Shown in pieces: positions 36,314-39,300 of a stretch of DNA of 64,000 nucleotides. Source of the stretch: Amphiscolops sp. MND2022. Lineage: Eukaryota. A program made the translations under genes and the position numbers. Under the pieces are notes generated by a model, which was not told the origin of the DNA, did not search any database, and was given only the letters and a program-made list of their open reading frames with translations. The stretch lies in contig OZ076409.1 in the NCBI GenBank assembly GCA_964187785.1, positions 19,780,001-19,844,000 on the forward strand, given 5' to 3'. Position 1 is the first letter of the stretch. Each line of letters begins with the position of its first letter.

Positions 36314-39300
36314 TTAAAGTTTATGACTAGGGCCAGCGCGCAATTTTTCCGCTGAGCGTGTAAGCTCAGTCTTCGACAGCAGTTTGGAGGAACGCTTCTT
36401 CCCTCGAGGGACAGCTAAATTCTTTTGAGGACTGCAAGTTTGGCTGACCTCAGGTTCAGCTGCTTTCGCCTGCTCTTGAGGAGTAATTGCATTGGGATCA
36501 AGCTTCGCCAGTATTCCAGCTCGTCCAAAAAGGTCAATTGACAACCAAGGATCATAAGAATCTCGGAGGGCGCTGTCCCCAAATGTAATCTCAAGGGACA
36601 AGAACTTTGAGACGGAGGAACCATCCGAAAGGGTTTCCACCCCACAGGAAACACTCTTGAAATACGACTGTACAGGCAAGATAATATCAGTCAGCTTACT
36701 AGAGGGATCATCGGTCCGAACAGAACTAAACCTTACCTCTGGAAGATCTTGAAATGGCTGGTCAAGGCATAGGCAGGAAAGGGTAAATAAGCGGTACAAC
36801 AATGGCCGGGACAGAAGACTTGATTGCTCCATGAGGAAATTGATGGTATCTGTGATCAACAGGGTTGGTTGGGCCATATCAGAATAGACCTGTCTCAATT
36901 CGTCCGCAAAGGAAGTGTATTCTTCCAGGCACTGAGCTTCTTGTTCTTGTTTAAAATATTCACGCAACAAAAAGGTATTAATTAACTACTTGAAGCAACC
37001 AAGAGAATACTCGGTGGGTCCAGACAACAGTGACTCCAGGTCGAATGAGCCCAATCCATGTACTATATCACTTGTTAGGTTAAAATGCCCCTGAGTCTCG
37101 TTAAAAACGTGGATGATGTAACTTCTTGCAAGTCGACCATATTCCTCTTTATTCTTGTTCGTGATGACTTCCAGGCTCAAACCAGCATTCTTTTTGTCCT
37201 TCTGCTCTCGCTCAGCTTAACTTAGCAAGCATGGTTGAACTTTGCACTCAACTTTAATCTGGACAGGAAGTCCTCTATTGGGAGTGCGATGGCCTTCTTT
37301 GACTCCAGAGCTTTTGACTCCCAGCCTTAACTTTGCAAGCATGGTTGAACTTTGCACCCAACTTTAATCTGGACAGGAAGTCCTCTATTGGGAGTGCGAT
37401 GGCCTTCTTTGACTCCAGAGAATGGATCTGCTGTAACTGGCCCTCTCTGGGTAAGCACTTGGAGCTGACCGACCGTCGAGCGAGCTTCATCAGAAACTGA
37501 CAGGATTCTTTGTAAAAGTAGAACCCCCGGTCCCTTCGGCTGGAGAGGTTGATACTGAAGCTGGTCGTGTCTAGGACCAAAATTAGTTACGTAGTCTATT
37601 ACCAAATGAACCGAGAGACCGTAATGCAAGTAGAACTACTTACAGTCGCGTATCAACTTCGAGAAAAGCTCCAATCGGCTAGTGAAGAATTCATCGTACA
37701 CGATTGACCACTCGAGATTTTGAGGCTAGAACATGAAAGGAAATTCTGATTATCTGAGGGGCGTCAGGTTTACCGGGACGCATAAATTTTACCAACCACT
37801 TTCTTCACTCCCTGTCCTTCCTGGGGCATGGCGTACTTCAACAGGAAAGCAGTTACGTCCGTCCAATTGCTGAGCAGTTCATGGCAGATAGTAGGAAGAT
37901 TGACCACATCGTACTTGCAAGCCTTAATCGCCTAAGTACCAGAGGTACAAGGGACTGTAAGGTAAAAGGACAAGGGAACACAAAAGAACACTTACCTTGG
38001 TCAACTCAGGTGTCATTACTGTCCACTCATATTGCAAACTGCCACCAAGGCAGATAACCAAATGTTGGATGACAGAAAAGAAATCGATCCGACCAAATAC
38101 ACTATAACTCTGCTTGTGCATTAGTTTGGCAGCTGATAGGTCATCAAATCGGGTAGTACATTGAATTCCGTGCTTGAAGAACGGACAAGAATCGACGACC
38201 TTGAGGAATCCTAGGGTGCACCCAGAGCAGCAGACAAGTTGGGCTTTGCAAGATATGGCAGATAGCAACACAGACAAGAGACGAATCTCTGCGGGAGTTT
38301 GTCCTGTGGTCCGTCCAGTACGTAGTAGAGGCACCCTGCACAACTGTAGCCCTTTCCAGAAAGTCACGTGTAGGTAGAGCAAGACACCTTGTTGTTCAAA
38401 GTCAATTGAGTAGAGACCGTTAGCCATGACTTGCGTCCCAATATCTTCTACAACTTGTTGGAATAGATGATGGAACAAGACCTACAATAACAAAAAGAAA
38501 TTATTCCTAATGACACAAGCTAGGACGTTCTCGCAGGAAGCGGTTAGTTTACGACGAATATACTCATAGGACCAATAGACTGGAAACGGATACTTACAGA
38601 AAGGCGTTCTTTTTCCCAATTGAGTCCGAGGAAAGCAACCTCTTGTCCCATAGCGGGTCCTAAGGGACCCCAAAGTCTGCGGAGTACTGAGAGGTTGCGG
38701 AAGGTGGGCAAGAAGTAACCCAGTACACAAATTTGGGCACGGACCTTGCTGTCAGGGGTAGTGGTGCAGTGTTGCTGTCCGGCCATATGGTCCTCGTAAA
38801 AGGGCATGCGTTCTCCAAGGTCAATCAGAGGTGCTTCAATGAACTTTGGTATCTCTAACTCTAATTGATACGCTGTCAACAATTTCCCATCCTTGCCGCG
38901 GACCCGACGTTTAACATTTCCGGTGACAGAATCTTTGACCGACAAGTACTCATATCTCCACCTCTGGTCTTTCCTGAGATGACGTTCAGATGAGTAGTGT
39001 CGAATGATTTCCTTGGCCCTTTGGTATAAATGGAAACGTTGTCCTTGCATATCAGACAGTAAAATTTATAAGGATTATGCTCTGGGTCCAGAGGCCCGGA
39101 CACGAAGACTCTCGTCCATGACATTCCTTCAAAGTATTCCTCCCGCATTATCCGGCCTCCACGAATTGACTTGCGCCGAGGGATTTTGGACCTTGTGGAT
39201 GACCGTTTGCTGACCTGAGTTACTTGCTTAATTTTTGATAGCTTCCTGCTTGAGAGCAGCTAAAGTTTGGCCTCCTGGACTATCGCACGCAGTTAACGGG

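Follow-up and report, generated by a model that had tools for sequence, protein, structure and literature searches.

A broken four-intron antisense gene, likely hAT-derived, in a Ty3/gypsy-type retrotransposon of Amphiscolops sp.

The element and its antisense gene

The window analysed here, a stretch of 64,000 bp from contig OZ076409.1 of Amphiscolops sp. MND2022 to which all positions refer, contains a Ty3/gypsy-type LTR retrotransposon of 16,375 bp (28235-44609). In the interval between pol and the 3' LTR this element carries an additional gene on the minus strand. The element and the antisense gene comprise the following features:

28230..28234, plus strand: left target-site duplication ACTAG (right copy ATTAG at 44610-44614; 4/5 match)
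28235..30072, plus strand: 5' LTR, 1838 bp, containing the first ~300 gag codons
29163..31196, plus strand: gag (DUF1759, CCHC knuckle)
30073..30090, plus strand: primer-binding-site-like stretch, beginning with TGG and abutting the 5' LTR end
31199..36133, plus strand: pol, with protease, a weak dUTPase-like domain, reverse transcriptase (RT), RNase H and integrase
36314..37570, minus strand: last exon of the antisense gene, with a helical region, a hAT dimerisation-like region and a basic tail
37571..37643, minus strand: last intron, 73 bp, phase 1
37644..37725, minus strand: exon 4, 82 bp
37726..37796, minus strand: additional intron, 71 bp, GTTGGT...TAG, phase 0
37797..37931, minus strand: exon 3, 45 codons
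37932..37995, minus strand: intron 2, 64 bp, phase 0
37996..38481, minus strand: exon 2, 162 codons, predicted RNase H-like fold nearest to the Hermes hAT transposase
38482..38597, minus strand: intron 1, 116 bp, phase 0
38598..40859, minus strand: 5' coding region, with a low-complexity N-terminus, a BED-like zinc finger and the start of the hAT-like region
40860..41818, strand not given: AT-rich spacer between the antisense gene and the sense open reading frame (ORF)
41819..42862, plus strand: sense ORF, 347 codons, entering the 3' LTR
42771..44609, plus strand: 3' LTR, 1839 bp

The two LTRs differ by 34 mismatches in 1838 positions, corresponding to 98.15% identity (1.85% differing), and their termini read TGTCGCA...TGCGACA. 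The domain order in pol according to Pfam is protease-RT-RNase H-integrase, and the best PDB sequence match of a related pol protein (P0314) is Ty3 (E 1.4e-27), with the RTs of foamy virus and caulimovirus tied. Several frameshifts and stops disrupt pol. LTRs, terminal motifs, target duplication and the sense gag-pol genes all agree with the claim of an earlier, sequence-only reading of this locus that the gene lies antisense inside a retrotransposon. The integrase stop is separated from the 3' LTR by 6.6 kb, occupied by the minus-strand gene (~40859-36314) and the plus-strand ORF of 347 codons.

Some further properties of the element may be recorded here. About 300 codons of gag are located within the LTR, the primer-site-like stretch lies inside the gag frame (29163-30090), and the start of gag is duplicated in the 3' LTR. 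No tRNA genes were found in the 64-kb window. The weak dUTPase-like domain, situated between protease and RT (32245-32598), scores E values of 0.009-0.22 and stays under the Pfam cut-off. The 347-codon sense ORF (41819-42862) contains a CxxC motif, overlaps the 3' LTR by ~90 bp and diverges from the antisense gene; it matches no Pfam family and by Pfam is not env-like.

Outside the element, a Maverick/Polinton-like element of 18.3 kb (44677-62990) starts 67 bp past the 3' LTR, with inverted arms of 40 nt and Pfam matches to a Pox_A32 ATPase and an rve integrase. Its other ORFs, for which there is no Pfam match, presumably correspond to protein-primed polymerase, capsid and protease genes. Three near-perfect palindromes of 128-171 bp are found in host DNA (8015-8172, 9882-10052 and 23969-24096). 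The host uses short GT-AG introns.

The window copy of the antisense gene is a pseudogene. Its 5' coding region, to which the related proteins P0050, P0098 and P0143 align, contains four frame changes (near 40430, 39510, 39240 and 39010). Two lesions disrupt its last exon: a tandem duplication of 110 bp (37216-37420) and, near 36986, a stop codon in frame. Two further GTAAGT donors on the minus strand (41729 and 41437) are located upstream of the coding region and possibly belong to introns of the 5' UTR. Prokaryote-style gene callers split the antisense gene into exon pieces, from which its namelessness in the searched databases may follow.

Introns of the antisense gene

The sequence-only reading had proposed three introns of 116, 64 and 73 bp with GTAAGT donors and TAG acceptors, and all three are present on the minus strand with exactly these ends. 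The junction peptides that it gave match as well. The set is incomplete, however: with these three introns removed, seven stops persist in 495 codons, and a fourth intron had been overlooked. When an intron of 71 bp with a GTTGGT donor (37796-37726) is removed in addition to the three, no stop remains in the 471 codons between 39065 and 37327. Another candidate, a 48-bp GTAAAC intron, was rejected as 5 stops remain.

Since the window contains 12 GTAAGT motifs on its minus strand, one could suppose that the introns are chance GT-AG matches in decayed sequence. We regard this as extremely improbable, given the 471-codon open frame and the behaviour of the relatives of exon 2. Among clusters formed at 50% identity, 234 relatives were recovered at E<=0.001; the following statistics use the 150 of them that were listed, and P0125, an unrelated repeat protein, was excluded from the column counts. 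The translations of these relatives continue into the introns, which is what gene calling that ignores splicing should produce. Directly after exon 2, Val (GT) is found in 81 of the 95 relatives running past its end (background V 7.9%), and directly before exon 2, Gln (CAG) is found in 25 of the 38 relatives extending upstream (background 4.4%), both among the 150 listed matches. In the same set of listed matches, 12 further relatives begin exactly at the upstream boundary of exon 2, and at the exon-2 donor the identity to the window, 46% on the exon side, falls to 11% on the intron side (n=74). Such an accumulation of Val and Gln at the exact boundaries, among the matches listed, speaks against chance matching. 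Conservation of the intron positions between copies, a check that had been set beforehand, is thus observed at the protein level, in relatives that are mostly 30-60% identical.

The same residues recur at the other introns, with Val at the intron-1 donor in 5/9 relatives and at the donor of the 71-bp intron in 8/10, and Gln at the intron-2 acceptor in 4/10. The 73-bp intron is the least supported of the four; it keeps the frame and has canonical ends, the acceptor context of P0016-18 and P0022 is compatible with it, and among the relatives examined no intronless one spans it.

A second argument against chance matching is provided by six relatives which lack one intron each. Intron 1 is absent from P0031, P0034, P0050 and P0136, and intron 2 from P0033 and P0101. 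The spliced join is visible in these proteins, and the next donor is retained in five of the six. For three of the four introns, chance matching is already refuted by the relatives at the level of their protein sequences.

The six one-intron-lacking relatives imply single-intron loss or gain inside the family. In a quick tree of 87 exon-2 rows they are scattered, with three changes for intron 1 and two for intron 2; the starred branches of this tree are compatible with a single origin of the intron-1 absence. This distribution suggests repeated losses of single introns among intron-bearing relatives.

The encoded protein

Sequence searches with the antisense protein did not yield a known family. 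Window pieces and eight relatives match no Pfam family, including PF04195 (Transposase_28/TRP28); the PF05699 dimerisation domain likewise has no Pfam match in the protein, and a search of PDB sequences returned chance matches only. In the zinc-finger region the zf-BED family is unmatched and a weak C2H2 match is obtained (E 0.008), while a C-x2-C...H-x4-H motif is located ahead of the core in the window copy, P0050 and P0098. No relatives of the locus were found in viral contigs, metagenome contigs or prokaryote genomes, and exon 2 matched none of the longer proteins in a word-index search.

Structure prediction points to hAT transposases. The model of exon 2 (pLDDT 80.6) shows an RNase H-like fold, and ranks 1-4 of the Foldseek search are Hermes chains, with E values of 0.009-0.017, all above 0.001, and probabilities of 0.96-0.99. 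In VIA the model aligns to Hermes with Z 7.5 and an rmsd of 2.7 (103 aligned, model residues 1-112). Hereby, an actin-fold chain ranks first (Z 8.3, 81 aligned), and Hermes is the sole row among the top 12 that begins at residue 1. The broadest structural coverage of exon 2 is achieved by Hermes 153-266, at 9-11% identity. Embedding neighbours of the N-terminal half, from zinc finger to core, are DUF4371/ZBED RNase-like families, and those of the C-terminal half, encoded by the last exon, are Dimer_Tnp_hAT (23/30 matches in the set) and FAM200-like families; with scores of 0.91-0.93 and 130-161 shared features, these neighbours serve as leads only. A fold model of the last exon was of low confidence (pLDDT 43), and its Foldseek matches were discounted. 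In combination, these individually weak leads occur in the correct order along the protein, and we consider hAT ancestry quite likely.

From the model and the geometry of Hermes, we take the end of strand 4 in exon 2 to be the probable counterpart of Hermes D248. At this point (exon-2 positions 83-88) Asp or Glu is found in only 6 of 127 relatives. An acidic residue in strand 1 is retained, position 27 being E in 69 of 79 relatives. According to the available text of PMC2533014, catalysis by Hermes requires D180, D248 and E572. Judged from the model, the second catalytic Asp has apparently been lost.

Association with the element family

To follow the antisense gene through the element family, contigs were paired by identical nucleotide count, a proxy for co-travel which is silent on distance and orientation; the pairing drew on 15 listed members per large cluster. 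The last-exon cluster comprises 26 members, plus several more divergent clusters, and the gag cluster comprises 27. Among the matches listed, 16 of the 21 other last-exon contigs, including four of the five under 100 kb, pair with close-gag or integrase contigs of identical nucleotide count, and the remaining 5/21 are without a partner; viewed from the opposite side, 9/13 gag contigs among the matches listed are paired with last-exon contigs. Pairing with last-exon contigs is found for 6/10 integrases at >=87% identity and for 0/109 of the more distant rows (Fisher P 6e-8). A subfamily whose exon 2 is 57% identical has at least two contig counts in common with a 75%-identical integrase cluster (15 listed members). 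Read-through proteins of other copies align to the window until 36170 on the integrase side and until ~36275 on the antisense side.

In the main subfamily, copies differ by 4.6-8.3% in the antisense gene, compared to 2.4-9.8% in the integrase. In a second subfamily the last exon is 33-35% different and the integrase only 6-10%, which we read as fast evolution or module exchange.

Alternatively, an independently mobile hAT-like DNA transposon could repeatedly insert at this site, in which case the introns would never have had to pass intact through reverse transcription. An exact 13-bp inverted pair flanks the antisense gene (36269-36281 and 41282-41294), a match that was reached in 10 of 2000 resamples (P about 0.005, post hoc); this pair, which is possibly a vestige of transposon ends or of the capture, would fit such a unit. 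The same applies to the hAT-like domains predicted along the whole protein and to the antisense subfamilies that diverge far more than their integrases; moreover, multi-intron genes are commonplace in DNA transposons. However, no 8-bp target duplication accompanies the 13-bp pair (best 4/8), and the second catalytic Asp is apparently missing in 121 of 127 relatives. The nearly one-to-one copy numbers of last exon and gag, the contig pairings with close gag or integrase among the matches listed, and the about equal differences of gene and integrase between copies of the main subfamily likewise argue against an independent unit, which we therefore consider unlikely. On the basis of these sequence comparisons, the antisense gene likely represents a fixed component of the mobile family, not a one-off insert.

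Proposed origin and function

The reading that we favour, and that we hold to be fairly probable as a whole, is that of a broken four-intron antisense gene which is likely fixed in the element family and likely hAT-derived, and whose product is predicted to bind DNA without cutting it and to act on the element. An ancestor of these elements would have captured a hAT element in reverse orientation behind pol. Splicing acts on strand-specific signals, and antisense introns are accordingly unseen in genomic RNA. As the genomic RNA would correspond to the opposite strand, the spliceosome would be blind to the introns of the captured gene, which would thus be copied by reverse transcription. Within the element, GTAAGT occurs once on the sense strand and at least 8 times on the antisense strand. 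The survival of antisense introns through reverse transcription, as proposed by the sequence-only reading, is supported in that the gene appears to co-travel with the family and the splice positions are conserved. Because the gene appears to be part of a mobile family, its introns have most likely been carried through many rounds of reverse transcription, and the antisense orientation most likely explains their survival.

From an intact copy, a spliced minus-strand mRNA would be transcribed separately from the genomic RNA, with a promoter probably located in the spacer (40860-41818) or in the 3' LTR; an internal promoter likely resides in the AT-rich spacer. The product would comprise ~1,300 residues, with a disordered N-terminus, a BED-like zinc finger, an RNase H-like core, a hAT-type dimerisation region and a basic tail. 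Lacking the second catalytic Asp, the core would have lost cutting, while zinc finger, fold, dimerisation region and basic tail would have been kept. Such a protein would act in trans on the element and would most likely aid its expression. More specifically, though only tentatively, we suggest that the predicted product oligomerises on the DNA of the element and either raises expression or protects the element from silencing by the host.

An integral, spliced antisense gene could also encode a protein that serves integration or DNA handling, for example by tethering the integrase complex to chromatin or by end processing. The same anatomical evidence would apply, both the zinc finger and the RNase H-like fold are modules for handling DNA, and the acidic residue of strand 1 is conserved. 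On the other hand, an antisense product would have to act in trans, with no obvious route of entry into the particle, and the antisense proteins described, HBZ among them, are regulators in the nucleus (PMC10186651). A role in integration thus appears improbable to us.

We consider it very unlikely that the gene is a functionless remnant of a once-nested hAT element hitchhiking in the family. At least 6 breaks in the window copy, and the fragmentary state of many database copies, would be expected of a remnant; yet the protein motifs of the exons are kept across the 234 clusters while the intron sequence is not conserved (46% vs 11%), the last exon is open for 355-385 codons in several copies, and the splice ends are retained.

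Extending the favoured reading of a captured and retained hAT gene, a Ty3/gypsy lineage may long ago have domesticated a whole intron-containing hAT gene and kept it antisense with its introns, its cutting disabled, as a DNA-binding accessory factor. This would extend over many families (234 divergent exon-2 clusters) and include the occasional loss of single introns via the element's own RT. We regard this wider history as possible but somewhat doubtful. If it is true, one class of transposon has domesticated the enzyme of another, so that a mobile element, and not the host, is the domesticator. Where the antisense accessory genes of LTR retrotransposons come from and what they do is stated as an open question in PMC7264820 (section 6). 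A hAT origin, if true, would provide a traceable source for a class of accessory genes of mostly unknown source. The origin of an antisense gene becomes testable here, since the introns are conserved, the family is large and divergent, and an ancestor can be proposed. The domain layout points to suitable assays, namely of DNA binding and of the effect on element transcripts, and the family would represent a natural system in which to study how reverse-transcribed genes lose introns.

Comparison with known antisense genes

An additional antisense gene, brtn, has reportedly been described by Zhao et al. in 2011 in Boty-like Ty3/gypsy elements of Botrytis cinerea. It resembles the present case as an extra antisense gene within a gypsy element, and its host is a fungus.

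In plants, Retand, Grande and RIRE2 are typified by an ORF that runs antisense in the interval from pol to the 3' LTR (PMC7264820, PMC11963269). Like the present element these are Ty3/gypsy, with a long region between pol and 3' LTR (2.9-6.6 kb in the plant elements and 6.6 kb here), and according to these papers they have a family-wide antisense ORF for which a DNA-binding regulator has been proposed; the gene described here is likewise probably family-wide and is predicted to encode a DNA-binding protein. For gene23 of Grande an internal promoter has been shown (PMC7264820, PMC11963269, available text). The antisense ORFs of Retand carry TRP28 (PF04195), whereas the antisense protein described here has no PF04195 match. 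The word 'intron' does not occur in the main text, as available, of the Retand/Grande papers PMC7264820 and PMC11963269, whereas the gene described here has four. In section 6 of PMC7264820, a review of 2020, the lack of similarity to other transposable elements (TEs) is said not to support an origin of antisense ORFs from nested TEs. While the known plant antisense proteins, as far as this text describes them, resemble no TE, the antisense protein described here is predicted to resemble a hAT transposase.

Spliced antisense transcripts that code for protein are known from HTLV-1 (hbz) and HTLV-2/3/4 (aph), and the intron persists in the provirus (PMC10186651, available text). In contrast to the present gene, hbz and aph are retroviral, encode small regulatory proteins and are, in the same text, transcribed from a start in the 3' LTR; the gene described here has its four short introns inside the coding region of a large transposase-like protein. 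The available text of PMC8220671 and PMC5408684 contains no intron-bearing antisense case. A hAT-transposase-derived antisense gene in an LTR element was not found in the literature searched, most subscription papers and Repbase reports being outside reach.

With hAT transposases (Hermes, PDB 8edg/4d1q) and domesticated proteins of the ZBED/FAM200/GTF2IRD2 type, the antisense protein is predicted to have a common order of zinc finger, RNase H-like core, helical region and dimerisation region. It differs from hAT transposases in that there is no sequence-level match, the second catalytic Asp is apparently missing and there are no confirmed terminal repeats. Moreover, domesticated hAT proteins sit at host loci, whereas the antisense gene described here is carried by a retrotransposon. 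In view of Retand/Grande, brtn and the spliced hbz of HTLV-1, both the layout of the antisense gene and the survival of antisense introns are already known, and the principle is thus not new. What is novel compared to these systems is the apparent origin of an antisense accessory gene from a DNA transposon of the hAT type.
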